Below the pieces are notes generated by a model that saw only the letters and a program-made list of their open reading frames with translations, had not been told where the DNA came from and did not search any database. A stretch of 63,997 bases of DNA, filler included, from Asterionella formosa (Eukaryota), in NCBI GenBank assembly GCA_002256025.1. It is 6 parts of 6 records of this genome, joined end to end, with 100 filler letters (N's around TTAATTAATTAA, not from the genome) between each part and the next. Parts side by side here need not be neighbours in the genome. Positions count along the whole stretch, not along the records: positions 10,819 to 21,540 come from NKIB01009211.1; 5 more parts are not named here. One strand, given 5' to 3'. Position 1 is the first letter of the stretch. Every line of letters begins with the position of its first letter. The translations under genes were made by a program, and so were the position numbers. This document shows positions 1-43,168 of the stretch, piece after piece.

Positions 1-1577
1 TTCGTTATATCATCTAATAATTTTGATAAATGCCTTTGTAATTTAAATAGTAACCCTTTTGACTACATATATTTAATTATTATATGTATTGTTTCTATTT
101 GATTCCTGTATTCGAATTTCTTGGTAGAATAATGTACCAGTTCAAGTAATGTAATTTGGCTCGTCATTTCCATCCGCCCATCATCACTCCGATTTTTGCA
201 ACAACAACGAAATACTAGCGATGACAAGCGGAATGAATGTTTGCGATAACGTCTTCAATTTGTTGGTCAAGTGATCTTTATATCTTCGAGTAATCGTCAT
301 GTGCAGTGAACCTTTGTTCATAATCATTCAATTAAGAGTTTACAGGAGAGAAGAAACCATTCGAACTCGTAATGTTTCCGCACACAGCGCACAAAGTATA
401 TCCGTTTCGTCCACTTCAGCATGACAATCTCGCCAATCAACCTGTCCAGTAAACAAACACATTCTACTTGTTCTCGTTGACATTTTCAATTCTCACATGA
501 TACTACATCTACCTTCTATTGAGATTCAGCATAGAAGGAGATACGAAAATGCATTTCATTTTCATATTGCTCGCTTGTTTCTGCATTTGGTATACTGTAC
601 TTGAATTAACTATTGAACTTGTCCGCATCTTTGATACCATCAAGCAAGAGAGCGAAAGGAAGTGGCTCTTTTCATTGTTGTTTGCTCATAGGAAGAATTT
701 GATATCTGTATCGTCATTTGCTTGTTGGAATTGTCCGTTGCCTCAAACTTGCTTGGAGTGTGCGTGCACACACTGTCGACTTGTTGTTTTCATTGGTATG
801 TTGTTCTTGTATTCACTGTTGAACTTGTCCGCATCTTTGTTACCATCAATAGAGCGACAAGTGGGTTTCTTCATTGTTATTTGCTCTTGGAAAAGTTGGT
901 GTCCGTGTCATCCTCATCATTTGCTGGAAAAATTGGTACTCGTGGTATCATCATTCGCTCGTTAGAACCACTATCCGTTTCCTCAAACCTGATTAGCGTG
1001 TGAGTATGTGCACTGTCGACTTTTGTACATTACAGGCGGAGTGACTTGTTAGCTACTAAATTGCGTGATATAATAATATACCCCCTAGCACGATGCATTA
1101 TACAGTTGCTTCCCAATCATCTCATCATGATTGATAAGATGATAACGTGATATCATGATAGCACCAAAGTATGATACGTAATAATTAATAAAGTACATCA
1201 CATAGCTATGATGCAGCGATCATAGAACTGTGATGATTTTTTATAATGTATATGATATCATTTTGATCGAAATATAATTATGTTAAAATAATACAATGAC
1301 AATAAAATACGATAAAATATGTACGCAAGTGTTACCAAAACATCATAGGTTAATTAATATATATGTTTGTCGTTTAATGTATATAGTTAAAGTCAACACT
1401 TAATATGATAGTATTATACAATGGATAGGATCTAAGTATACGGATGCGTTGATATGTACATCACTATAATATGATTTGTGATTTGGATTGATGCATATCA
1501 CATACCGGTATCCTCAACAACCAGCCATCACGTTCATTGTCGTGTCGTCTTTCCTTGTTTTAGCTATATAACGGTAT

Positions 1578-10818: not shown

Positions 10819-10930
10819 CGGGTAGACTACCGCAGCACAACAATTGAGAAGAAAGCCTCGCCGGCCTGTTTCCTACCTCTAGTCACAGTAACTCATTCTA
10901 AATCCATACTTCTTGCGGTCCTCTCTGAAC

Positions 10931-11815
10931 ATGTCTGCAAGAAACCTGGAGGCCTTGCTGGTCAATCCAGAATATACTCGAAAGATTTTCGAACTTCGAG
11001 ATGGACGGAAATTAAGCTATTCTGAATGTGGAAACCTTGACACAGGCCTTCCGGTGCTTTTTCAGTTTGGCCTCATGGCCAGCAGTCTCGCCGTCATGAT
11101 GTTTCATATAGAATCCATCAACTTGGGTCTCCGAATTATTGCTGTTGACTATCCGGGAATCGGAGAATCCTCGCCTGTTCTGGATCGCACACTTGTCGGA
11201 TGGGCCGTTGACATGGATGAATTCTGCGAAGAAATGTTTGGGGATTCAAGAATAGCTCTGTTGGCGCATTCCATGGGAGGAACCCATGCTATTTCTCTAC
11301 TTTCTCATGCTCGTTTGAATCAACGAATACGATCTGTCACGCTAGTATCCCCCTGGCTGCCGTTCGAAAATTCTACAGATACACCTTGGTTTTTAGATGT
11401 CGCTCGCCAACTACCAACCGTATTCCAAGACAATTTTATCCCATTTTTTGCTACTACAATGACGACTTCATCGCTTTCCATGGCTGGTACCGTTGCCATG
11501 TGTTCCAAGAGTGCCAAAATGTTTGTGGTCCAAGAAATCACAGGATATGGCAAGTTCCAAGGGCAAGCTGGCAACAGACAAATGGTTCGACTGGCATTGG
11601 ATCCTATTGATATCGACGCCCTTCCTTCTCATATTTCCGTGTTTGTTTTTCACGGCAATAAGGATAACTTAGTCCACGAAGGAGCCTGTTTACAGCTGAT
11701 CGAATCTTGGATGGACAATTCGCCTACTTTTGTAAGCTTTGAAATGGCAGATCACAATACTGTCTTGGCGAATGATAATCTTCACACCATTCTAGCAACT
11801 GTGGTGGGAAAGTGA
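10931..11815 (+). CDS. Alpha/beta-fold hydrolase (Abhydrolase_1-like)
   Basis: LRDGRKLSYSECG, AVDYPGIGES, nucleophile elbow AHSMGG, FHGNKDNLV (Asp), ADHN (His); ATG at 10931. Confidence 0.9.
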   Translation: MSARNLEALLVNPEYTRKIFELRDGRKLSYSECGNLDTGLPVLFQFGLMASSLAVMMFHIESINLGLRIIAVDYPGIGESSPVLDRTLVGWAVDMDEFCEEMFGDSRIALLAHSMGGTHAISLLSHARLNQRIRSVTLVSPWLPFENSTDTPWFLDVARQLPTVFQDNFIPFFATTMTTSSLSMAGTVAMCSKSAKMFVVQEITGYGKFQGQAGNRQMVRLALDPIDIDALPSHISVFVFHGNKDNLVHEGACLQLIESWMDNSPTFVSFEMADHNTVLANDNLHTILATVVGK

Positions 11816-12912
11816 ATTATGGAAATAATGGGCGCATATACATGCATCCAAATGGAATGAGAGTTTCATTTGCACTGTCCTCTATTACACAGGTTTTAAG
11901 CGCAACACGAGCACTGCTGCTCAATAACCGCTTACAATATGACAAAAGGGAGACTTAAAAAGAAATGGCAACATTGATGAAATACTCTCAACATACCAAA
12001 AGTACTGGTATACTGTCTGGGAATAAGACTGCAGGTATAGTTAACCTATTACTACAAGGGCTTGCTGTGCATAACTTGAATGGCTGTGCAGGTTTGTGTT
12101 GGCATTGGGGTTGATGTCAGAGAGATTGTTTGCTACCATTTTCAGCAATAATGCACACAAAGAAGAAGCCGAAATTTAGAGGTGATCTGACCAACCTGGC
12201 ATCCTGACATATTTTCGAGTTTACCTTGCAGTACATTCCTCTGTAGAAGGTGGGGAATTTTAGGTTAGTTTAATTGCCCCTGAGGGTCATTTTAGGTTAT
12301 TCTGCACCTAAACTACAGGAAATGATAGAGATTAATTTCTTGTCCTACAGATGAATATTAGTAAAAGGCTACAGACAAAGTTAAATTTTCATTTCAATTC
12401 TTAGAATTTTTGGTGTGGGAAAAGCCAATAATGACTTGCTGGCTTCAATACTTTGTACAGTGTGAAATGGATGACAGATTACAGTACAGTACCCCAGTAC
12501 ATAAATTGATATTGGTATGTGATGCATTGGGCCTAGCACAGTACCAGTACCTGGTGAAGTATCAAACTAGGGCAGAAGTAGTTGTATTTGTTGAATATAT
12601 GAGTTTATTACTTATTCTTGATATGAAAGTCATTCTGACAGTTGACACTAATGTATACAATAGGCGGTGTTAGTCGAGTTCATTCATCATTGAGTTCTGA
12701 TATATATGATATAACCCTTTCCCTATATACATCGTATTGATGAGCGGGATCGCTCACCTGGTACTAGGGACATCTGGAAAACGTGTAATGGCAATAATTA
12801 TGGGGGTTCAATTTTATTAGTAGCTAACTATCCAGAACTTGAAATATATATTGAGAGCGCGTCAAGCAAGGACTGGCACGCTTCCATCTTGGCTTGTGCT
12901 CTTGACCCTTGC

Positions 12913-13003
12913 TGCTTAAGTTGAAAGTAAATAAGCGATTGGTGCTTAAAAGTAATTAAGCGTTTGGTGCTTAAGTTGAAAGTAAATAATCGTTTGGTGC
13001 TTA
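12913..13003 (+). repeat. Short tandem repeat, 25-30-nt units (GCTTAAGTTGAAAGTAAATAAGCGATTGGT)
   Basis: Three imperfect consecutive units plus a partial fourth. Confidence 0.8.
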
Positions 13004-16000
13004 TTAGGTAACTTATTTCCAAAGCTACCTTGCTTAATGTAGGATTCCGTGTTGACTACTTAGAATACAGCAACAAGCACAAACCCAGCCAATTACTCTC
13101 ATCTTCGAGTCAGCATATATTGCGGATGGCCGTGTTTAAAATGTACTCTGAGTATGGTGACTTGGTGGCAGAAACAACAATATGACCATGACGATCACAT
13201 GATCCAACAATTCTAAACAGATAAATAATGAATTTATAGTGAATTATTTATCATTTTTTGGGCCTGATCCCTTATAGACAATGGAGCATTATAGAACGGC
13301 GCATATGTATGACTAAGACTCGTTTCAATGCAACGACGAGGCATCGAGATATCGTCTTTGTTGTCAAGCTCACTTCTTGTGGGTTTCCGATTTTACTGTT
13401 TCTGCTATATCCAAACAAATGTAGTAGCTACAAGAATTAAAATCGTGTACTATCATACGCTAGCGACTATTTGATTCTATTTCTTTGACTAGTAGTATTC
13501 AATAACAAATGAGGGGAAGAAGGCATGATCATTGTCGTCGAATCGTCAGAGACGTGTTGTAGTTGTTGATGAGATTATTACATTGTTCATTATATTTTTG
13601 TCGTCACATGTCACAGTCGATGGGTGGCTGACAACGTTTAGGTTTTCCGGGAGAAATTTTTACTTCTGAACACGACGAGCTCCATCTAGCCACCGGTGGG
13701 CTGAAAAGACTTTCCCTATCCCTAATGTAATCAGAAGTTCATTTCCTGCATAAGTTTAAGCAAGAAGTCAGTTTCCTGCTTAAGTTAAAAGTTTTCTCGG
13801 TTGGAAAGCCGGCGAACGTGCATTTCGCCATGACAGCCCATCCCAAACGACGTTTAAGTATAACGCCTTTATTTTTTGCGGCAAATTTTGAAATGTGTAT
13901 CGAAAATTCACTTCGATGCGTACAAGCATGTTTTCAGTATGTCCGACTTTCATCCATACAAGCGTGATCAGCGAAAAGTAAATTCGCTTATCCGATTCAA
14001 CACTTACCTTTTGATAGAGCATAGCAGCAATATTGAAACCATGTGCTGCTCCAGTGCGAACATCACCAGCAGACGAGGAAGATGCATATTGCTGCCATGG
14101 TGTCTTCAACTATACATAAATATGATTTTTCTTTGTCTTTGTCTAAATCTAATAATGATAAATTATAGTGATCATGTTTTTATTAAAATTGAAATTAAAT
14201 TTTATAGCACATTACTAAAGCTATCCAATAATCGCAATCATGTCCACATTTTCAATGGAAGCAATGAATAACGGCTTTTTTCGATTGTACAGTACATCGG
14301 GCACTGTCTTTTCGTCAGCCGCATACCCCGGAACCCTAGGGACAACATGAAAAAGACAGGTGAAGGAAAGGAATCAAACCCGCCACTGCAGAAGGTGTCC
14401 TAAACAGTAAGCCATTCCCCAGTGATCACGTGTTTACTAAATTACATAGATGCTATTGCACACATTTTAATTCATGCCGTATGCAGTATAAAAACTTTGT
14501 TTTGTTTTGACTTTTTGTCCAAGTTTCAAGGCAAGTTTAAGAAAGACTACTACAGTATTATAGCGCTGATGACAGAATTTAGTGGTACATAAGCTACAGG
14601 GACCTCCGGGTTCCGAAAGTTAATAAATCCTAAAAACGACCAATTCACCATGACAAAAGGCGCTATCCAAGCGGCCAACCAGTCAAAGAAAGAACAACTC
14701 ATACATGTGGGACAGCACCATAGGATAGTAACGAAATCTGACGGAAAGAGAATGCAGAAAGAGGATGAGATGGAAAAGCAAACAAAGATTAATAAAGGAG
14801 CGGTGAAAACCAGCAATTGCATGGATGTTGATTTCGCGTTTTCCACAAACACTTAACACAGTTGGGTAATTCACAGCTATGGAATCCACACAATACGAAC
14901 CAGGCAAAGACAGTATCAAGAGAGAAGAAGAGAAGAAGTTTAGCACCTTTTTCACTGTACTAGTGAGCGCTACTACAAGCAAGAAGCAGAAGAATACAAG
15001 AATGGCGATATGCCAAACATGAACAAGAATAAAGAAGAAGACAGAGAAATGAAGAAGTCACTGATGAAGAAATTGCGCCAGAGCTGGATGGGCTGCTCAA
15101 AGCAATAATTTTTGTGATAACGAAGACAATGAAGACAAAGAAAAAATTAGTTGGAAGCCCTGCAATCACCAATTTTTATGGAGACTTCAAATTGAATCAC
15201 CAGAATTGGGGCCAAATGGTAAATCATTAACCCAATCCACATTCACCATCCTATTCTCCGGCTGACATGAGAAGTACAGTCATAGAGAACTGAACCAAGA
15301 ACAAACCACAATCTTTTTAAACTACTTCCACATGAGGAAGTGACTACCAACCAACCCTCTCCACCGCCCCACCTTATATGGGCCATGGAGCGCAGTGACG
15401 GCAACTCTAGAAATAGAATAGTAAGACTGCGCAATAAAAATGATTAAAATATAAAAGCTTTGTTTGATAAAAGTGTGAAAAAATCTCAAAAGAATGGAAT
15501 TTGTGGGAAGCATTTTCAGGGAGGTATGGGAAACTCTTTACTTCCTTGCTACATTGTACACAGAACACGCTTTTTTTGTGAAATATATTGTGAAATTATA
15601 AAAACAAGTTATTTATTAGAGCATCTCTACCGCATCGACCAAATACCGAAGCCAAACACAGTTGAAAATATCAAAACACGTCATTTGGTCGAGAAATTCT
15701 TAATCAATAGTCGAAATTTCATATTTTTCCCAGCACCGCATCGACCAAATCCTAAAATAGTCAAAAAATAGAGCTATTTTGTCTTTATATGTGTATCATT
15801 GATATAGCGGTACGTACTACATAGCTATTTAAACTCAAGACACTAAGTATGCGAGAAAGTTTTTTGGCACATGCAAATTCCGATTCCAATATTTTGGCAA
15901 CTGTTGAAAAAACCGATCAGGTCGACTTTTTGGAGGTCGATTGCTCTACATCTGCGGGGTTTCATGAAGATTAAAGTAGATAGCCGTTTACCCCATAACG

Positions 16001-16117
16001 TCAGGAGTTAACTTCTGGAGAGAAACTGCATTTATCTCTTGTGGATTTTTAAAAATCCTTTATAGCCCCGCCTGCAAATAAAAACTATCATGAATATAGG
16101 ATCAAGGGTATTGTACG

Positions 16118-18234
16118 CTAAGTGGCACAGGATTTTTACATATATGATAGTTTTTCGATCAAAAATATGATCAATGTATCATATAATTATGATCATGCAT
16201 GCAGTAAACTTTTACCGAGCTTGAAGTATGATGATACTATCATAGTTATAATAACATTGCATCATATAATTAGTTGATCATGGTCCTATGATTTGTATAC
16301 TTTTGTCATACATCTATCTCAACATGATCGTAATTCTCATCGAAATCACTGTCTAAAATAGGATGAAATTGATCGAAATTTAGAACTATATTTAGTTAAG
16401 AATGGTTCCATGTTTCTATATCTTGAGTGGCTACAGAATGGTCTACAATGCTCTCATCGCAATGATTGGTGCTTCAGCTTGCTTTCACTTCCACCTTCCC
16501 CCCAATCCAATTCTGAAGGTTGTTGTACTAGTTGCCTTGCCGTTGTTCCTCTGCTTTGTTCCATTTACTCCTGACGGAACTGAGTTTGCATTCACGCATT
16601 TTCTCATTACTATTGAATCCGTTTCATTGTTCCAATCAGCCATACTAACAAGGAGAAGCAATTCATGATTGTTAGCTGTTCATGTTTTGCTTTTACAACA
16701 ACATGCCTTTCGCTTCTATCTACACTTACCACAAATTGAGGAAGTAACTGATGCATATTTCTGTAAAAGAATGTGTCAGTTGAAGATTGAATGAGAAAGT
16801 ATCGATCAATAAATGGTCTCCAATGCTGCTGTTGTCTGTAACTTACAAATACTGTTTGTCTACCATTATCCTGAAAGAAGCAACACAAATGTGTCAGTTT
16901 TTCTAACAGTTGTGGATTGATCCAAAGATGATAGCACTTACCGATTTATTTTGTCCACATTGATGGTTGGCCAGCCACCAAATCGAAACAAAGGAGCTAT
17001 TGAATCACTGAAAGGGGACGAGTCATTCCGTATTTGTAATCCCAACAATTGATCATCCTGGCATTTGCTCTTGACATGCCGTGACACTATGCACAGCTTG
17101 TTGATTCCGCCCTTCTCCATCATATTCACTCCTTCTTAGCCGCATAGTGTATCATCGTGTTTTCTTGTCACTTCAGTTTTTCGCGTCATGTGTTGCTTAA
17201 GATCCTTCATTTCAGGAAGTGTATGCATGACAAGGAACATGTAAGGCATTTGCTCTTGACTTACCATCAGCCAATTGATCCCGCCCTTCTCCTAGTCACT
17301 CCTTCTAAGCCGGTTGCAAGTATCATTGTACTGTATTATCACTTTCGTTTTCCGCGTCATCATGTGTGATGATCCTTCATTTCAGGAGCAAAGTGTATGC
17401 ATGACAAGGAACATGAAAACATGATTTCAAATGTTTCAGCCATGTATACGTATATAAAGATTTGTAAAAAGTTTAAATGTATATATAGTTGAACATTTGC
17501 ATAGTTTTAAACATGCTCATTATATGGCACATCCTTTGTATACTATCATCAATTTTGATTATACATAATTCAAATATATACAATGCATGATGAGTTCATA
17601 GTTTTCCTCAACCTGATGAATTTGTCAATTTAATTTATGTCAATTCTTGTACCTACAAGTCCCCTTAATAAACAGGAGTCATCACCAATTTTTCAAATTG
17701 TCGAAATCATACATTTATGTATATAGACACATTGACCTTATACATTCGAAAAATTCGTATGGCCTACCGATAGTACTGTATACTTGCTGGGTATTACTTC
17801 TATCATGGGAATACCACAATAGTGCAGCGGAAAACTGAATATGCTCATGTGTTTAGGATCATTTGATCATATTTCTAAGATCAATTAATCCTTATTCCTA
17901 AAAATAAATGTTGATCTTTAATTTTCTCATCAACAACACCATTTATCATAGCTATGATCAATATGTTATGATCAAAGGTACAGGATAAACAAATAAAAAT
18001 TTATTGATTGAAGATCATAGTTTACTGAAGGTAATACACGACCGAGGGTGGAGACTGCCTGCGAGTATTTTTGTGTTCGAGGCTTGGGAGGCGCGAGCAG
18101 GTTGACCGAACAAGTGGTGCCCCCGGCGCTGCAGGAAGGTCGACCTGCGAGGGTTTCCCAAGCCGAGTACACAAGATTACGAGTAGGTACACTCCTACCG
18201 AGTAGGGTATTACCTAGGCAATTCACAAACTAGT
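16118..18234. mobile_element. Probable non-autonomous relative of the scaffold-1 element, ending in a long hairpin
   Basis: 16118-16235 matches revcomp 9145-9260; both flanks are AT-rich and TGATCA-rich; degenerate minus-strand ORF pieces; ~180-bp tandem duplication (17060-17244 / 17245-17416). Boundaries are approximate. Confidence 0.4.
18029..18215 (+). repeat. 187-nt imperfect inverted repeat (rod hairpin) with four CGAG/CGAG motifs
   Basis: Arms 18029-18107 and 18138-18215 pair in register, e.g. AGGTAATAC/GTATTACCT, GGCTTGGGA/TCCCAAGCC, GCAGGTTGACC/GGTCGACCTGC. Confidence 0.9.
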
Positions 18235-19789
18235 TTTTCGCCACTACATTGCCCTTCCAGTTAACATTGAAAACCTATTTTAGATAGTTTGTATGTTGGA
18301 TGCAAACCAGCCAATTGCCCATCATATAAAACATACTTTGTATATTTCATATGTACAGTTTTTGGATTACTCAATCCTGCAAATGCCCATCATATAAAAC
18401 ATATTTTGGATATTTCATATGCTCCGTTTTTCGACTGCCAAACTACCTTCAATATTTTCAATAGCCCCTAGATTTTATTGCCGAAATCGACTGCCGTTTA
18501 TTTAGGAGAATTTGATTACTGATATCTATAGCCCCTCAATTAACCGCCGTTTACTTAAGGAAAATCGACTGCCGAAATTGGACGAGAGTATGAGGAGCTA
18601 TATGAAGGCATGAAATGATGGTTTTCTTGAAAGTGTCGACGGCAATTCCACTCTTAACATCCCTGCTATCTTCCAGCATGCTCCGATGTATACAAAATCT
18701 GGTCATTGATGTCTCAATTACTGACTCTTCATCAAATGGATCTTGCTGGTTGTTGGATATTTCGATTTCTTATGGGATTCATATCGTTGCATCGTGCTTG
18801 CTTCGTCACGGTGGCGCCAAAATTTCGGTTCCCCTTTCTATTGATTTCCGATAGCCTTTCCGGTCAACTCCTTCGCTAGATTTGATATGTAGTGATAAAT
18901 AAATTAATGATTGTTCAAAAGCGACATCAATCAGTCGTTGAGTATCAAAACTCAAAGCGTTATGGTAGGTCAAAGTTAGGCTTCCATCTCGCCATTGAAC
19001 CGGTATTTTCGTCAGATATGATCAGCTGTTAAATTTTAACTATTTTCTACGTGTTCTACACTATCTCAAATCAGATCTTGGCAGGAAGTTTTAGTTCTCA
19101 CGTGTTGGATTTTTTCCGCTGCCCTACAATAGCATTGTTTCATTGCTTTCTAATCACAATATTACTTTTGTTACTTCTGCATAATCTTCCACAATGACAA
19201 ACAAAAAGTTGTCAATCTCAATGAGCTATCGCAAACTCCGCAAAGCAGCCGGAAAATGATGGTACCGGTGTTCTGCATTAACTCGTATTCAACAAGGAAG
19301 AGAGGACAGGTCTGTGCTTGTTGATAGTTGTTGTTGTATTCGATTTCCCACTATGGTCGAGTATACTAATTATGAATTTTGATGAAGGCTATTGTCATGT
19401 TACTCCTCCACTTCCTGACAATGCAAGAAATCAGTATCCACTGGTCAAACCAGCTTGTCCAACTAGGTGAAATATGTTGCCAGTCGATTGTTGTTTTCAC
19501 GTGGTACACACCGACATTATTCTTTTCCTGTTTCCCAACGCTGCCTAGCAAGCCACTTTTATCGAAACTCGCAAGAAGATTGCCAAGTCTCCAGGTCGCA
19601 AACAATGTGGGCAACATATCTTGCCAGCACCAACAACATATCACTCCATTGCTCCCTATCAGCCTAATAGAAAATTTCCTCCTCAATTTTCCATTTCACA
19701 AACACCCACACACATCAGCCAGTAAATTTTCGACGCATCCTGCTCCTCCTCCTGCCGGATATTAACGGAGTTCTGCACCGCCAGCTCGC

Positions 19790-21540
19790 GGAACATGCAT
19801 ATTACACTGTGCTCTGTTCAACAATTACTACACTCGGTTACCATCACACCAGTTCCACCTCCACAAGCGCCGCAATAAGCTCCGCGTTTCCCTTCCACTG
19901 TTTTACATCATTGTCTTCTGGCCCTTTGACAACTTTCCCAATGGCATTTCACGGCTTTCATGGAAAGGATCAGTCAAACAAGAAACAAGACTTACTTCCA
20001 TTGTTTACATTACACGACTTTATGTTTTCGGAAAAGAAGATGAAGAAACTTATGAAATCAATCGAAGATTCCTTTGAATACACTCGATAGCAAATGAATT
20101 TGAACAGATTCATAATACTCCAGAAAAAATAATGAAGTGAAGTTTGCCGATACAATAGTGGCTGAGATTGAAAAGAAGGAAAGATTGCTTTCGAAGAGCC
20201 AAGGAAACCCAAACAGTTGGTCTTCGTGGATGAAGACTCTATTAATACAGAGTCACAGTTCCACCATCCAGTGTCGTATTTTGCTCATTCTCCCGAAATC
20301 GCTGATAATGAAGAAGAACTCAGTGATTCTCATTCATTTGATGAAAAAATTCATGCGATGAATGACATATCTCACTATCCGTCCAGAAAATCAAGATGAA
20401 CATCATGAAAGCAGAGAAACTATTGCATTTCTAAAAGAACCGATATTCAAGAAAAAGTCTGAGCTAGATCAAGACCTCGAATTCAAGAAGATCAATGCAG
20501 ACAGAGATGTGATGCTGGCTAAGGCAGTTGATGCTCTGAATAGGGAACGAAGTCAGAAACACAAAATTGAATCTTTTTCCAAATCATACATGGAAGAAAA
20601 AGATTAGTATTTCTTTGTGAAATCATTGAAAACAATCCAGAAGGCAGCTACTTTTGTGAAAAGTCGGCATGTGAAATGTGTAGAGTTATTATGCCAAAGC
20701 AAACGGCATTTTCCTTGAGTTTGCCGAAATCGCATCACAACTAAAATTATGGAAAGAGTTGTACACTCGTACCCCGCAAGATATATGCAATTACGCCTCT
20801 GTATTTTATGGAGTCAGAGGTATCAAAAAATCATCTTCAGATCATTTTAAAGATCTTGCATATTGGGACCTTGAAACAATTACCTCTATGATCCATTGTA
20901 TAATTCATGAACTTCATCCAAGTGATGTAAAGGTAATACTATACTTGATCTGGATGAGAACCCAGAAAAGGGTAATAACAATCCATATATATACCAAGGT
21001 GATTGTCATCCACTTCATCACGAAAGTAACTATGTGCTAATTGTGTATTGCAAAAGATCAGATGAGGAGGAAAACAATCATTTTAAACGAAAAAATCATC
21101 AGTCCATTGATCAGTAAGACCATTTGAAACTGAACTTTCTTCCCTCACACTTTTTTAATAAGTGGTTTCCCACCAATGTCGACAAAATCGGTAGAATGAC
21201 AAATATCGTTCTCTGAAATTTCATGGGCATCTGGATTGAGACCCAAATATTTTTGTTGCAATCGGAATTTTCCTTTCAGCACCAAGAAGCAAAATGCTTC
21301 TGTACTGGCATTGATCAGCGAACCAACAAAACGTGTTTGCAATTCACACTGTGCCCTAAGACTGAGTTGAAATTTGGTCACACCAGATTTGTCTCCTGTT
21401 AAAAATGGTTCTCCACGGCTTGTCCTGCCTATAAAATACACCGGATCAAGAACATCACGCCAGACTTGGTATCCATGCTGGCTTCCCCTGTCAATGTCCT
21501 TTGACTGCGCAAAACGATAAAGCGTCAACGCCCACCTAAT
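19790..21540. mobile_element. Second copy of the element: Ulp1-gene 5' part (+, 19790-21085) joined to an ORF-X fragment (-, 21086-21540)
   Basis: Near-identical to 1614-2995 (with a ~60-bp deletion) and to revcomp 60803-61260. Confidence 0.85.
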
Positions 21541-21640
21541 NNNNNNNNNNNNNNNNNNNNNNNNNNNNNNNNNNNNNNNNNNNNTTAATTAATTAANNNN
21601 NNNNNNNNNNNNNNNNNNNNNNNNNNNNNNNNNNNNNNNN
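21541..21640. other. Artificial scaffold spacer
   Basis: Same 44N-TTAATTAATTAA-44N pattern. Confidence 0.98.
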
Positions 21641-21855: not shown

Positions 21856-22221
21856 CTAATAGTCGCCACCTCCACCACCTCCTTCATCTCCACCAAACAT
21901 ATCCATACCACCCCCAAGGTCCATTTCTTCTTCTTCTTCCTTGACTTCCTCCTTGACTTCAGCAGCAGCACCTCCAGCATCGGCTGCTCCAGCACCGCCG
22001 CCGCCACCACCACCTCCACCGCCACCGAATTTAGCCAAGGATGCTTTACCAGTAGCAATCACTTCATTCAAGTCTTTCCCTTCTAATTCAGTCAGGAGTG
22101 TTGATAAACGATCATCGTCTACTTCAACACCAACTTTTTCAAGTGCTGTTTTAATATCATCCGCTGTAGGTGATTCGGTTCCACCAAGTTTCAACAAGAG
22201 GTAGGCTGCTAAGTGCTTCAT
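21856..22221 (-). CDS. RPLP2: 60S acidic ribosomal protein P2
   Basis: [14 protein letters not shown]...[23 protein letters not shown]...[14 protein letters not shown], Gly/Ala hinge, acidic tail [20 protein letters not shown] at 22221. Confidence 0.95.
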
Positions 22222-23624
22222 GATGAGTGTGTTTGGGTTGTCTATCACAAAGAAATGAGTGAGTATGAGTGGTGCATATATAGTGGTAATATACTTCTCC
22301 ATCCCAACGACGCGTTGCATCACAACACACACGACGACTCGCAATAGCTACACGTGCCTTTCTACGAACGGATCAGTTTTCAATCGTTTTCTCCTCTTGA
22401 TCGTTCTCTCACATTCTCTCCTTCTCTCTCATTCACATACATGTATAATGATGTCAGAATCATGGAACTTACAATGGGTTCAAGTACTACAAAATGTCGA
22501 AACGCTACAAGCCTGTTTAAGAAATACAAAATTTCCGCAAGTAGTAAGAAGACAATGGCGGTAAACTCTCCAAAGTCAATCATCCCCACCGGTTGTCTAC
22601 CACTACCAGTATTACCTGTTACCAGGTACAGGTATACACCGGTATACACTCTCTCACGATCACTCATGCTGATGCTTCTTCAAATAATCACATGTAGAGA
22701 GTAGCAGGTACCAGCTAGACTACTTACTACTGTATATAGAGACACGCCAGCAGTACTGGTACCAGGGTACCATCATCATGTATGATTCGTGTACACCCAT
22801 ACCGGTAGTTTGTGTACACTACCGGTATGTATTCATACGTAAAAACATTTATTCCTTATGATACACATATGTACAAGAAATACTTATTTTAAGCAAATAT
22901 CTGTATGTACTGGGATCCGGCGACTTCAAAAATTATTGATTTCAACATATTTAGCGGTGGTTGGACCACACGTCTGTCTGGCTGCCCAATCTGTACCAAT
23001 GGTCCATGCCAGGGTACCTGGTACTAAGAAAATCGGTACGGTGGCAGGTAAATAGGTATAATGGCATAAAACTCCACCATTCTTTAAATCATGTGACCGG
23101 TACCTGCAAGTTGCGGTATTTAGCTTTCTTCATCCCAGATTAAAATATTAGTTTAAGCAAAATGACCGCAACTTGCTGGTATTAGGGTGCGGGTAGAATA
23201 TATACCCCAAGAACGAACGGTAAGGCAAACTGTGTCAAAAAAACAAATAAATCATCATCCTGCGTGGTATCTTGCGCTGGTGCTCCATTCACATGTTACT
23301 AAGGTACCTACAGGTGTGCCGGTATGTACTTGGGCTTAACCCAAGACTGACAACCGGTTCTCCCTTGCTTGAGCCGCAGCGATTCAATCATGCATGACTA
23401 GTTATCAAGAGTATGGTACCTGGTACCAGGTACTGCACAAGTACTCCATTTCAGGTAGCAACAAGAATGCACACACACCGGTAGATTCTAAATACATACC
23501 GGTAGGTAGTAACGATTCGACGGGAAATATAGATCTGTTTATTTGATGGCAGTAACAATGATCTGTCGCATACCGGTAGTCGCATAATTTATTTTTTACA
23601 ACTATTTCGATATCGCCCACTTCA

Positions 23625-32455: not shown

Positions 32456-33800
32456 TTGAAATTATCTGCAACGAAGAAAGTTTAAGTCGTGGCACGTCTT
32501 GCATCAAACCATATCACATCTTAGCTTTGGAATCAAACAAGGGAAAATGGTGATACCCTGCCTGTGGGAGCTCCCAACATGACATGACATGATTTGTTGT
32601 TGTTGCTTTGTTATTACATAGTAATAGGTCTAATTGTTTGCTTGCACTCATCATTGTTTACTGGTGCTGGGTGATGCTGTGGATTCCACTGGAGACACAA
32701 AATACAATTGTCATGACCACCAGGTTGACAGATATTGCTAGTATGAATACTGGTAGTTACGGTCGAAGTTTGCACCAAGGCTAAAACGAGATATAGTTTT
32801 GTCTGTGCCTAACATGACTTCAATTATGTTAATTTCCAGGGGTCCTCTGATATTGCCCATCATAAAAATAGATTTTGTATTTTTCATTAGCTAGCATTTT
32901 CGCAGCATAATTTGCTTCAATTGCCCCTCACTTGCATTTACCCTTTGACTTGCCTTCCCACCAGCAGCCTTCCTTGACTTTTTACTTCTCGTGTCGTTTC
33001 AATCATTTCAAATTCCGAATCTCGCATTTGATTTTACCTTTGGTGTTGGCTAGTATTACTCTTGACGCAAGGTCATCAATCAATTCCGACATAGCGAGTT
33101 AAAGGTAGAATTATTTTCAACATTAAGGGTATCATGCCAGCATGAATGTCTCGCACCTAAAATCGTCATCCAGAATACACCAACATTAGCAGGCTGCAAT
33201 AGATGATGTTGTGTTTGTATAACTTGCAATTGTGGGTATTAGATTCCAAGTAATCCAAGTCTCCGTTCAATGATGAGTGAGTGCATTATGGAATTCTTGC
33301 CCACCATGGATTCTATTCATTCATATTGAACTCAATTCATCAAGTTCCTGATTCGAATGGCCCCTGCCTGATGAGATATCAAATAGGTAAACAAACTTGA
33401 AAGGTTTAGGTATTATTATTTAATCATAAATTTTCTCTTCGAATTGACACAACCATATGATTATTGTTCCAGAAGCCATCATTATTTTCTCCATAATCAA
33501 AGTAAGTATACTAAGGAGGGCGAATTGTTTTGGAAAGCAATGGGTTTAGCTTTCTCAGTTCCATGAATATCAATTGCTCATCACCATATTTTAAGCCCAG
33601 CCGGTTGCTATTGACTGTCTCAAAAATATCATCATCAGTGTGTGAGATCTAACAATATTCTCTATTACTTTAATATTAATGTTGAATCAACTCTCGTCAA
33701 TATAAAATTATAAGGTTGGTGTAACGACTGCAAAACCGGCGCCTTGATCGCTTAGCACGGTCAAGTACTTTCTCAATTTTGATTAAATAAAAGGGTTTGA
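32456..33800 (-). pseudogene. Degenerate IS630/Tc1/mariner-like DDE transposase
   Basis: Minus-strand fragments in order: TVNSNRLGLKYGDE; YFDYGENNDGFWNNNHMVV; PFKFVYLFDISSG..H; MNRIHGGQ; WEGKSKG; and an H.EL..G-like remnant near 32555-32585. Many stops; not in the ORF track. Confidence 0.6.
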
Positions 33801-41143: not shown

Positions 41144-43168
41144 TCACAATTTCAACTTGAGATTCTCCATTTCCAACGACACAGCCCGATCAGCGCATCG
41201 CAATGATAAGACTGCTGCTTCCATTCCAAACTCTACTGCCTCCTTTTCACTCTTACCATTTATCAGTGCATGAACAAAAGCACCACACAACGAGTCACCA
41301 GCTCCAGTGGAATTGACTACCACCACTCCCTCCTTTGCTGGAATATGATCCCATGTGATTTCTGGATTATTCATTGTCTTGCATCCCAACAACACACCAT
41401 CACTCCCCAGCGTAACGATCAAACATGCATTCGCGTTTGGTGCCATGGCATTCAATACTATTGTTGCTGCTTCTTCAACTGATGGAACGAAATCACTTTT
41501 CAATGTCGACATCAATTCCATGGCCATGCGAATACATTCATCACGATTTGGAAATGCATACTGAATATGAGAAATCCATTCCATGACAACGGTAGCTTTG
41601 GGAACTGACGTTGGTTCAAAACAAATAGCCGTATGAGTCACAAAGGCATGTTGTATTGCTTGTTCCAACGATTCACGCGAGGCGTTGCCATCTAGTATTA
41701 TATGAGAAGCATGTTGCAGTTGTGAAATGGTCGGAGCTGGAATATATGACAATATATCCATATCTGCAACTGCTGTGTGCAAATCCCCAGTATCGTTCAA
41801 AATGGACAAATATGTAGCAGTCCGTTGTCCTTGAATGACTCGTGTCCCCTCTCCATTTTGTTGTAGCAATCTTTGACCTCGATCATCATCACCTACGGCA
41901 GTCAAAAAGAGAACAGGTGTTCCTAATCGTGTCAATGTTTCGGCAATGTTTCGTCCCACCCCACCATTTGTTTCTACCATGGTTCCTGGATTGGAAGTGT
42001 GCAATTGCAACAACTCCTTTGGCTTTGCAATCATATCAATCACAGCACCACCCATCACGACAACTCTTGGTGATAATGTGGATGGAATATGATGGAATAT
42101 AGGTTGTTGATTTTCTTGATTGGCAATGGCAATGGCAATATCAGCCCCAACCTTGGCATTGTTCATAACCAGGGCAACATTAGCAGCTAGGGAGTCTCCT
42201 TTGGTTTGTTCGGCGACACGTTTTAAAAGAAAGGGTGTCAAATCCCGTCCAGAGATTTCCAACTGCTCACTTTCTATCAATGCGGCTTGAATAGCCGATT
42301 CAATATCTACCCCATGCTGAATGTTGGTAACAGGAGGAGGGACTGCTATTAGCATACCATGCTGGAGTTGCAATTGTCGTGCCGAATGATAGTAGTTTGC
42401 AATATCTGTGGCGTTGTCGACTCGAGCGGGCGAGTCAATTCCTGAGGCAGCATGAAAGAATGCTGGAAATTCGTTACTTCGAAACGTCAAGACTGGAACT
42501 CCCAAGGTTTCTAATACTTCCAATGTTTTTCGAATATCTAAAATTGATTTAATCCCTGCCGATACCACCACAATAGGAGTACGTGAAAGTTCTGTCAAGT
42601 CGGTTGAAATGTCCATGGTAAGTTCCGCCTTGCGATGGACACCCCCAATCCCACCCGTCACAAAGGTAGCAATAGCACCACTCGCAGCAGCATGTGCCAA
42701 TACCATGGTCGATGCAACAGTCGTTGCACCCCATGATGGCTGTGATTGTGACGAATGGTGTTGTCCCAAAAGTATCGAAAGATCCCTAGTCGAACACTTC
42801 ATGGCCGCTGTTGCGCCTGTCTTGGCTAAATCTTGCAATTCGTCTGGAGACAAACCAATTTTAGGTCGTCCCTGATGTATGGCAATCGTCGCTGGAGTAA
42901 CTCCCACATTGCGAACCAATGTTTCCACATTTGTCGCTACTTGGAAATTGGTAGGAAAAGGCATCCCATGAGCGACAATCGTACTTTCGAATGCAACTAT
43001 TGGTTCCTTATTAGCAATAGCGGATCTTACTTCGTCAGAGTAAAGAAACAAATGAGAAGAAGATAACGAGCGCCTTGATACGTTGTTGTTGCAACGACCA
43101 CTTATAATGGGAATCTTGTTGCAAATGTTTGTTCGACTTGTCCACAGTTTCAATCGACTCATCCGCAT
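41144..43168 (-). CDS. Bifunctional pseudouridine-5'-phosphate glycosidase / pseudouridine kinase (PsuG/IndA + PfkB fusion)
   Basis: VAFESTIVAHGMPFP, ATTVASTM, FVTGGIGGVHR, DISTDLTEL, TPFLL; PfkB signatures GGVGRNIA and NSTGAGDS. Arg/Ser-rich N-terminus resembles a mitochondrial transit peptide. Confidence 0.95.
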   Translation of the reverse strand: MRMSRLKLWTSRTNICNKIPIISGRCNNNVSRRSLSSSHLFLYSDEVRSAIANKEPIVAFESTIVAHGMPFPTNFQVATNVETLVRNVGVTPATIAIHQGRPKIGLSPDELQDLAKTGATAAMKCSTRDLSILLGQHHSSQSQPSWGATTVASTMVLAHAAASGAIATFVTGGIGGVHRKAELTMDISTDLTELSRTPIVVVSAGIKSILDIRKTLEVLETLGVPVLTFRSNEFPAFFHAASGIDSPARVDNATDIANYYHSARQLQLQHGMLIAVPPPVTNIQHGVDIESAIQAALIESEQLEISGRDLTPFLLKRVAEQTKGDSLAANVALVMNNAKVGADIAIAIANQENQQPIFHHIPSTLSPRVVVMGGAVIDMIAKPKELLQLHTSNPGTMVETNGGVGRNIAETLTRLGTPVLFLTAVGDDDRGQRLLQQNGEGTRVIQGQRTATYLSILNDTGDLHTAVADMDILSYIPAPTISQLQHASHIILDGNASRESLEQAIQHAFVTHTAICFEPTSVPKATVVMEWISHIQYAFPNRDECIRMAMELMSTLKSDFVPSVEEAATIVLNAMAPNANACLIVTLGSDGVLLGCKTMNNPEITWDHIPAKEGVVVVNSTGAGDSLCGAFVHALINGKSEKEAVEFGMEAAVLSLRCADRAVSLEMENLKLKL

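Follow-up and report, generated by a model that had tools for sequence, protein, structure and literature searches.

What is the long palindrome at positions 18026–18234 of a 63,997-nt stretch of DNA from the diatom Asterionella formosa, on which strand does it work, and as what kind of molecule? The stretch, hereafter the window, joins six parts of six records of the assembly GCA_002256025.1 with filler letters between them. It is ordinary eukaryotic nuclear-type DNA, and the palindrome lies in the part that comes from NKIB01009211.1 (positions 10819–21540). An original prediction, made from the sequence alone, had described a strand-specific rod hairpin with four phased CGAG/CGAG sites, each giving tandem G.A pairs, and with CTAG|T behind it; it had read the hairpin as a selected structure of single-stranded DNA (ssDNA) or RNA. 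We find that it is a real, selected, strand-specific structure which heads a dispersed diatom repeat and has an unusual phased tandem-G.A architecture. With a confidence slightly short of even, we further propose that this structural module works more likely as RNA than as ssDNA, and that the repeat of this freshwater diatom which it heads is laid out like a long terminal repeat (LTR).

The + strand folds into a single rod

With DNA as well as RNA folding parameters, the + strand of 18026–18234 folds into one long rod of 187 nt. The parts of the module, as given by the folds and a register check, are:

18026–18234, + strand: whole hairpin module, the rod with its 3' tail to CTAG|T, forming the first ~210 nt of the repeat unit
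18029–18107, + strand: 5' arm of the rod
18138–18215, + strand: 3' arm of the rod
18114–18132, + strand: apical mini-hairpin of 8 pairs (5 Watson-Crick and 3 G.T) with a CCC loop
18216–18234, + strand: 3' tail of the module, conserved and single-stranded, with CTAG|T at its end

Both the pairing of the arms and the single 1-nt bulge that had been proposed within them were recovered, the bulge being visible in the sums of facing positions, which are 36245 at the CGAG sites and 36244 in the outermost helix (18029–18036 with 18208–18215). The loop refolds, as anticipated, into the apical mini-hairpin. All of its pairs (8/8) are kept in three copies of the family, namely the window's own and two metagenome relatives, L030 and L036, that are introduced below; one pair differs, from C-G to U-G only. 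The module is indeed a GC-rich island, with a GC content of 0.53 at 18000–18199 against 0.29–0.36 in the adjoining bins, and CTAG|T is present at 18230–18234, the distance from the rod base to CTAG being 14 nt.

Strand specificity was borne out by both kinds of fold with shuffle controls. With DNA parameters, the + strand reaches -43.3 kcal/mol (z -4.46, 0 of 200 shuffles as good) and the - strand -29.7 kcal/mol (z -1.25, 25 of 200 shuffles as good). With RNA parameters, the values are -108.7 kcal/mol for the + strand (z -8.50) and -72.1 kcal/mol for the - strand (z -2.79), with 0 of 200 shuffles as good in either case. The energies of the + and - strands of the three copies are -108.6/-70.4 (window), -151.7/-123.1 (L030) and -113.2/-90.8 kcal/mol (L036) with RNA parameters, and -42.6/-29.1, -74.2/-66.4 and -53.1/-47.3 kcal/mol, in the same order, with DNA parameters; across these copies the gap between the strands is 2–4 times larger with RNA than with DNA parameters. 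A covariance model of the three copies matches 18013–18234 with 219.6 bits on the + strand and 56.3 bits on the - strand, and it finds no second copy, the hairpin being single-copy within the 64-kb window. The hairpin is far beyond chance.

CGAG motifs face each other in phase

Along the rod, four CGAG sites face four others in one register, at spacings of 19, 16 and 16 nt, exactly as had been claimed, and the remains of a fifth pair flank the apical hairpin:

18043–18046, + strand: CGAG motif 1, facing 18199–18202; outer C.T (18042/18203); kept in L030 and L036
18062–18065, + strand: CGAG motif 2, facing 18180–18183; outer G.T (18061/18184)
18078–18081, + strand: CGAG motif 3, facing 18164–18167; outer T.T (18077/18168); this pair is fixed by the metagenome search pattern
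18094–18097, + strand: CGAG motif 4, facing 18148–18151; outer G.G (18093/18152); its 3' side is TGAG in L036
18111–18135, + strand: decayed fifth motif pair round the apical hairpin, CAAG at 18111–18114 and CAGG at 18132–18135

The fifth pair is an intact CGAG/CGAG in both L030 and L036. L030 thus has five facing pairs, and both relatives carry five CGAG on the 5' arm. Position 18134 is A in other copies, as seen in contigs of public runs. Sheared tandem G.A pairs are classically found in the CGAG/CGAG context.

The list of positions that depart from Watson-Crick pairing stood only in part. The six G.T pairs named for the rod are present, all within 18043–18107, but the remaining positions, taken as paired, include eight true mismatches that had gone unlisted: 18042 C.T, 18048 G.A, 18049 T.T, 18054 A.A, 18055 C.C, 18068 T.T, 18077 T.T and 18093 G.G. 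No A.C opposition occurs in the window's rod. Directly 5' of each 5'-arm CGAG stands a non-Watson-Crick position (18042, 18061, which is G.T, 18077 and 18093), and the outer positions of the L030 motifs are C.A, G.A, T.T, G.T and A.A. In the window and L030 together, this outer position is never Watson-Crick, with 2 of 9 cases being G.T wobbles and 7 of 9 true mismatches. Since this holds at every motif, the recurring unit is an oriented motif of five positions: N.N' (non-Watson-Crick or wobble), C-G, G.A, A.G and G-C. The longest uninterrupted helix measures 12, 13 and 12 bp in the three copies.

Such an arrangement is hard to obtain by accident. The string CGAG-N12-CGAG occurs four times in the 64-kb window, every time within the hairpin, against a shuffle expectation of 0.37, and 0 of 100 shuffles reach four. 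We also simulated the decay of an inverted duplication by keeping the 5' arm and giving its perfect complement 27 random substitutions, the number observed. Not one of 200,000 trials produced four facing CGAG/CGAG sites, and the maximum of two was reached in 41 trials; an inverted duplication would place CTCG, not CGAG, opposite CGAG. The statement that random decay of an inverted duplication is unlikely to give this pattern is thus upheld.

The hairpin heads a dispersed repeat

Among 24 public runs listed, 23 contain part of the stretch, mostly in small shares and under freshwater or riverine labels. We aligned the contigs of four runs, three of DNA (X2, X3 and X4) and one metatranscriptome (X19), to positions 17400–18900, and we base no statement on habitat on the other runs. 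The DNA runs gave 44 (X2), 1404 (X3) and 103 (X4) aligned contigs, numbers which indicate that the whole of 17400–18900 is repeated DNA in those samples. The hairpin is accordingly multi-copy, with copies in public runs and metagenomes, and the copies share one edge:

18022–18026, + strand: left boundary of the repeat family, where homology starts; the unit begins with TG at 18026

At least 14 contigs of X3 turn into mutually unlike sequence before 18023, and at least 12 contigs of X19 turn unlike at 18022–18025. Homology among the copies begins at the 5' base of the hairpin (18025/18026), so that the proposed position at the edge of a repeat is correct, on the 5' side. Most other copies have C at 18070, 18118, 18155 and 18197 and G at 18190. 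Each of these bases restores a Watson-Crick pair. The window thus holds a somewhat decayed copy, and the typical rod of the family is better paired.

Sequence to the left of the hairpin has a history of its own. Positions 17400–18024 are themselves a very abundant repeat in X2–X4, which in other copies continues past 18024 into a different conserved sequence (7 X3 contigs, agreement 0.99). Since the left-hand repeat continues differently elsewhere, the hairpin unit abuts or interrupts another repeat. A search of the window for this continuation, a possible insertion footprint, gave no match.

Further relatives came from a single metagenome scan with a pattern anchored on two CGAG motifs, which returned eight loci. 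Six of them (L031–L035 and L037) were rejected as chance matches without the hairpin. The other two, L030 and L036, both read on their reverse strands, have a rod 78% identical to the window's. They are 91.7% identical to each other over 719 aligned columns, from the rod base downstream to the contig ends, and their flanks upstream of the rod are unrelated to each other. BLAST finds the window collinear with them over 18022–18224 (78%) and 18314–18430 (77%), and no part of the unit is better conserved between the subfamilies than the hairpin. Three family-specific patterns had no match in the genome-contig collection, and two of them had none in viral contigs. A structural scan of viral contigs for six CGAG at the observed spacings was discarded, as all 29 of its 29 loci are simple tandem repeats with a period of 8 or 16. 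Two of these 29 loci, L003 and L021, lie on a 59-kb viral contig that carries the same CGAG-containing 8-nt tandem repeat at both ends and is unrelated.

L030 differs from the window in having a longer palindrome. On its reverse strand, the 24 nt at 410–433 are complementary to 625–648 at 22 of 24 positions, so that the 3' tail pairs with an extra 24-nt 5' extension and the palindrome lengthens to 239 nt. A short, damaged version of the extension is found in L036 and none in the window, and the X3 sequences before the boundary have no common extension (agreement 0.39). It may have arisen by snap-back, with a free 3' end extended where the folded strand has its base; should the unit be an LTR of the - strand, it may be a self-priming site; or it may be a longer rod specific to one subfamily. 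Penelope-like elements are described, in one account, as having inverted 5' copies and 30–40-bp 'tails' (PMC8557442). Such an origin was considered for the extension and set aside, with no reverse transcriptase, pseudo-LTR or hammerhead seen. Further upstream, the L030 flank at 305–373 (reverse strand) bears a faint likeness, over 59 nt at 66% (E 0.002), to the unit's interior, and the flank also has a 15-nt exact match to the window at ~18472–18486. This likeness hints at a tandem or nested arrangement and is too weak to call.

The fold is conserved and covaries

In the three full copies (window, L030 and L036), RNAalifold gives a consensus of 74 pairs. Forty-nine of these are invariant. In ten, one partner alone has changed, always between G-C and G-U or between A-U and G-U; six have changed on both sides and still pair; the last nine are unpaired or gapped in at least one copy. 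Shuffled alignments average 2.0 double changes, with 2 of 500 reaching six, and six slid controls give 0–2, so that the six compensatory changes observed exceed expectation. The copies hold 9, 10 and 10 G.U pairs, against 0, 2 and 3 C.A oppositions.

The motifs are kept better than the rest of the rod. Between the window and L030, 37 of 40 CGAG columns are identical (29/32, derived by subtraction, without the motifs fixed by the search pattern), against 121 of 167 other aligned columns (Fisher one-sided p 0.004). Taken together, the wobble-type one-sided changes, the fixed purine-purine motif and the double changes point to selection on the folded + strand and not on duplex DNA. They support a selected single-strand structure of a repeat family over a randomly decayed inverted duplication, as the original prediction had it. 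The hairpin also passes the tests by which that prediction was to be refuted, being multi-copy, with compensatory changes, conserved CGAG positions and no match in Rfam.

The unit behind the hairpin

Two further features describe the rest of the unit:

18235–18860, + strand: rest of the non-coding unit after the hairpin, present in all three copies by DNA-level homology and matched by many contigs of the DNA runs
18312–18434, + strand: two ~68-nt tandem repeats, ~300–370 nt into the unit, each with a TATAAAA (18325–18331 and 18393–18399)

The unit is at least 0.7–0.8 kb long and non-coding. Likeness to L030 and L036 extends to about 18860 in all reading frames, which places the homology at the DNA level, and a coding potential of the unit was rejected on the same ground of matches in every frame. 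A ~99-nt fragment at 32831–32929 resembles the part with the 68-nt repeats (77% to L030 reverse strand 758–853) and has no hairpin, so that pieces of the unit also occur alone.

Homology passes straight through CTAG|T, and this decides against one reading of the hairpin. Helitron 3' ends consist of a short GC-rich hairpin a few bases upstream of CTRR, with insertion before a T, and the arrangement here, with CTAG 14 nt behind the hairpin and a T next to it, resembles this; a strand-specific hairpin would also suit a rolling-circle enzyme. However, L030 and L036 remain 91.7% identical for ~500 nt beyond their CTAG or CTAC, with the window collinear, and homology stops instead at the other side of the hairpin. 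The rod is moreover 187–239 nt long, against some 16–20 nt for a Helitron hairpin. A Helitron-like 3' terminus therefore fails. Linked HUH/RepHel or tyrosine-recombinase genes, for which a search had been proposed, were not found: a Pfam search of 31 open reading frames (ORFs) of the window, 14 of which lie within a few kb of the hairpin, gave no HUH, RepHel/helicase, transposase or recombinase family, though non-autonomous copies would be without the gene in any case. A hairpin with CTAG|T behind it is thus a Helitron-like cue that can mislead when copies stay uncompared.

The unit starts with TG (18026–18027) at the mapped left boundary. A candidate end is CA at 18807–18808, ~780 nt into the unit; three bases later comes the self-complementary TGGCGCCA at 18812–18819, and a pyrimidine tract, TTCCCCTTTCT, follows at 18829–18839. 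The region 18807–18839 could hold a primer-binding site on the + strand or a purine tract on the - strand. With its TG start, its TATAAAA repeats and its CA followed by TGGCGCCA, the unit resembles an LTR whose U3 would open with the rod, LTR-like being here a label for the layout and not for membership.

RNA or ssDNA as the working form

Copies of the hairpin are present in contigs of an RNA library. In the metatranscriptome X19, four contigs of 263–2779 nt cover the region from 18023/18025 to 18121–18196. The summed depth of X19 contigs is in the thousands over 18012–18215; leftwards of this it is zero in most bins, and rightwards it ranges from tens to a few hundred. A selective accumulation of hairpin RNA was considered from this profile and dropped, as contig depth cannot rank the parts of a stretch and a lack of coverage is no proof of anything. 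The high-depth contigs are only 82–87% like the window, so that the profile may simply follow conservation across species.

No Rfam family matches the hairpin. A search of the whole window with Rfam 15, whose families include miRNA, SRP, snoRNA and ribozymes, gave no match at the gathering score, and within 15000–21000 the only match at E <=1 is Histone3 at 16019–16063 on the - strand, a histone 3' stem-loop match below threshold (20.6 bits against 34, E 0.045) that is probably due to chance. L030 and L036 gave four sub-threshold matches, the best of them over the hairpin being mir-941 in L036, with 20.7 bits against a threshold of 60 and E 2.6.

We moderately prefer RNA to ssDNA as the working form, on account of the strand gap, 2–4 times larger with RNA parameters, and of the presence in RNA-library contigs. 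The working form would be the folded + strand, a rod of about 75–95 pairs interrupted every 15–19 nt, or about one and a half helical turns, by the oriented five-position motif. Regular spacing, fixed orientation and the higher conservation of the motifs suggest that they may be contact sites for a protein that coats or reads a rigid rod. The motifs would also cap perfect duplex at 12–13 bp, leaving a rod that is very stable yet offers no perfect double-stranded RNA (dsRNA), and such a capped duplex would presumably be a poor substrate for enzymes that need long perfect dsRNA.

A bolder version of this proposal, which we consider somewhat unlikely, is that the hairpin represents an undescribed class of structured RNA, a 'phased tandem-G.A rod' with five motifs every ~16 nt along a ~90-bp helix. 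It would serve as a conserved cis-acting handle of a diatom retroelement family, read by a dedicated protein in export, packaging or protection from RNA silencing, and would be widespread in freshwater diatom transcriptomes.

Several points weigh against an RNA module at the head of an LTR-like repeat. The covariation rests on two lineages, as only three full copies were aligned and L030 and L036 are 92% alike, and the search pattern had fixed two CGAG motifs out of ten, along with 13 further columns of the comparison. Palindromes can keep their pairing by DNA-level processes, such as templated repair between the arms, without any function in RNA. A contig from an RNA library proves neither transcription nor strand and may hold DNA. 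The reading as an LTR is weak: Pfam finds no gag, pol, reverse transcriptase or integrase in the 31 window ORFs, and a second direct copy of the unit is absent from the 64-kb window, although a solo or truncated copy would fit. Nothing convincing was found downstream in the way of a target-site duplication, which for LTR retrotransposons measures 4–6 bp, or of similarity to the flank. The TGG-led stretch at the place matching TGGCGCCA differs in L030, and the upstream sequences of L030 and L036 have nothing in common in spite of units that are 92% alike.

Alternative explanations

Foremost among the alternatives, and in our view unlikely, is that the module works as ssDNA in an intermediate of replication or transposition. 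In one version, the unit would be an LTR on the - strand that ends in CA at 18027–18026, and the hairpin would be the R-U5 leader of this LTR; the rod of the + strand would then be the minus-strand strong-stop cDNA, and L030 would show a self-priming site of the Tf1 type. In another, an HUH or rolling-circle enzyme would read the hairpin. The + strand beats the - strand with DNA parameters too, DNA itself allows stable G.T pairs and, in a C-GA-G context, stable tandem sheared G.A, and the boundary reads TG/CA on either strand. In Tf1, the 5' end of the transcript folds back on its primer-binding site, and the L030 sequence outside the TG/CA end is comparably complementary across the hairpin (22/24). 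Self-priming as in Tf1/sushi elements needs the element on the - strand, however, whereas the structure favours the + strand, and the extension is intact in one of the three copies, with no linked reverse transcriptase. The larger strand gap with RNA parameters and the good TATAAAA boxes on the + strand argue in the same direction. The flanks of L030 and L036 beyond the 24 nt are unrelated, which is unexpected for internal regions of elements that are 92% alike. Finally, 0 of 31 window ORFs hold an HUH, helicase or reverse transcriptase domain, and homology does not end at CTAG|T.

We think it quite unlikely that the hairpin is a foldback of the kind seen in miniature inverted-repeat transposable elements (MITEs) and, once transcribed, supplies the small-RNA machinery with a hairpin-RNA or miRNA-like precursor. 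It shares with such elements a near-whole-length palindrome that is multi-copy, lies in repeat-rich DNA and is found in RNA-library contigs. Here, however, the palindrome forms one end of something longer and is not self-contained: the copies vary in the left flank only and share the right one, and no duplication of the left flank was found downstream. Its mismatches form one conserved, oriented, phased motif. With helices of at most 12–13 bp and conserved interruptions, it would be the opposite of a good Dicer substrate, and the sole miRNA match in Rfam, mir-941, lies far below its threshold.

It is very unlikely that the hairpin is an independent non-coding RNA gene, transcribed for instance by polymerase III, that was copied around the genome along with its flank. 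A B-box-like GTTCGAGGC stands ~50 nt from the left boundary in all three copies (3/3), TTTTT follows CTAG in the window (18234–18238), and the hairpin's being the best-conserved part of the unit would also fit. The T-run is nevertheless limited to one of three copies, L030 and L036 being without it, no convincing A box accompanies the B box, and ARAGORN finds no tRNA-like gene in the window. Conservation of the unit for more than 600 nt beyond the rod and the lack of an Rfam match speak against it as well.

Least probable is a neutral relic, an old inverted duplication amplified within a repeat with its pattern inherited from the founder copy: all copies do belong to one family sampled in two lineages, so that the shared CGAG are partly shared ancestry, but the decay simulations (0/200,000), the CTCG expected opposite CGAG, the six compensatory pairs against 2.0, the better-kept CGAG columns and the ten one-sided changes that keep pairing on the + strand, against 2–3 that suit the - strand, all oppose it.

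Comparison with known systems

An architectural parallel is the constitutive transport element (CTE) of type-D retroviruses. The account cited here describes it as a stem-loop of ~130 nt with 2-fold symmetry, which lies at the 3' end of the genome and binds NXF1:NXT1 with each of its two lobes (PMC4330390). Like the CTE of Mason-Pfizer monkey virus (MPMV) or simian retrovirus 1 (SRV-1), a rod of this kind would be a long stem-loop in the RNA of a retroelement with repeated, symmetry-related internal motifs that bind protein, and its phased motifs may be comparable to the repeated internal loops of the CTE or of a packaging signal. The two are unrelated in sequence, and the rod has five small tandem-G.A motifs in place of the two large loops of the CTE. 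The comparison is one of architecture only, in the sense of 'works like', the host here being a diatom and both the element class and the binding protein putative.

At the level of the single motif, the rod recalls tandem sheared G.A motifs and kink-turns of the L7Ae/15.5K type, its G.A being followed by A.G and closed by C-G and G-C. All tandem G.A sites of the rod lie in symmetric loops without a 3-nt bulge, and they are therefore not kink-turns. The rod-shaped RNAs of viroids and the delta agent offer another likeness: they, too, are very stable, with helices interrupted regularly and at short distances. Unlike these, the rod is a ~200-nt module in nuclear-type repeat DNA, and we saw no sign of circularity or of a ribozyme. 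To our knowledge, and by comparison with Rfam, no case of five tandem G.A in phase along one rod has been described.

Genomic setting

Apart from the hairpin, the Pfam families in the 31 window ORFs are those of ordinary genes, all far from it. An ORF at 21856–22347 looks, by eye, like acidic ribosomal protein P2. On the - strand, 41144–43168 encodes a pseudouridine-5'-phosphate glycosidase (Indigoidine_A) fused to a PfkB kinase, its best named relatives being diatoms (Seminavis, Discostella, Thalassiosira and Mayamaea) at 45–49% identity. One protein is 97% identical to this fusion and the next ones are 60% and 57% identical, suggesting that the source lineage is poorly sampled.

The window also holds other repeats. 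Positions 19784–21084 match 1608–2996, and 21095–21500 match 61262–60842 in inverted orientation, as long repeats of 91–93% identity with ORFs that have no Pfam match. A tandem duplication with a step of ~174 nt (17101–17241 and 17275–17415, 78% identical) lies upstream of the hairpin. At 21541–21640, N runs stand on both sides of TTAATTAATTAA, which looks like an assembly gap with a linker carrying stops in all frames; the window would accordingly be a scaffold and no single continuous read.

Implications

The structure looks like a selected kind that has not yet been described, the comparison being with Rfam, and a described diatom repeat could still match it. We read it as a structured cis element of a mobile repeat, with a putative function and element class. 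We know of no structured cis element described for a diatom repeat, and a literature search showed nothing specific. The mobile elements of diatoms, like their RNA biology, have been little explored. Against this background, the rod is a clean, testable candidate for a new module of protein-RNA or protein-ssDNA recognition. If the motifs are binding sites, it would provide a natural array for structural study of how sheared G.A pairs are recognized, and it could give a handle on the export, packaging or shielding from silencing of diatom repeats.

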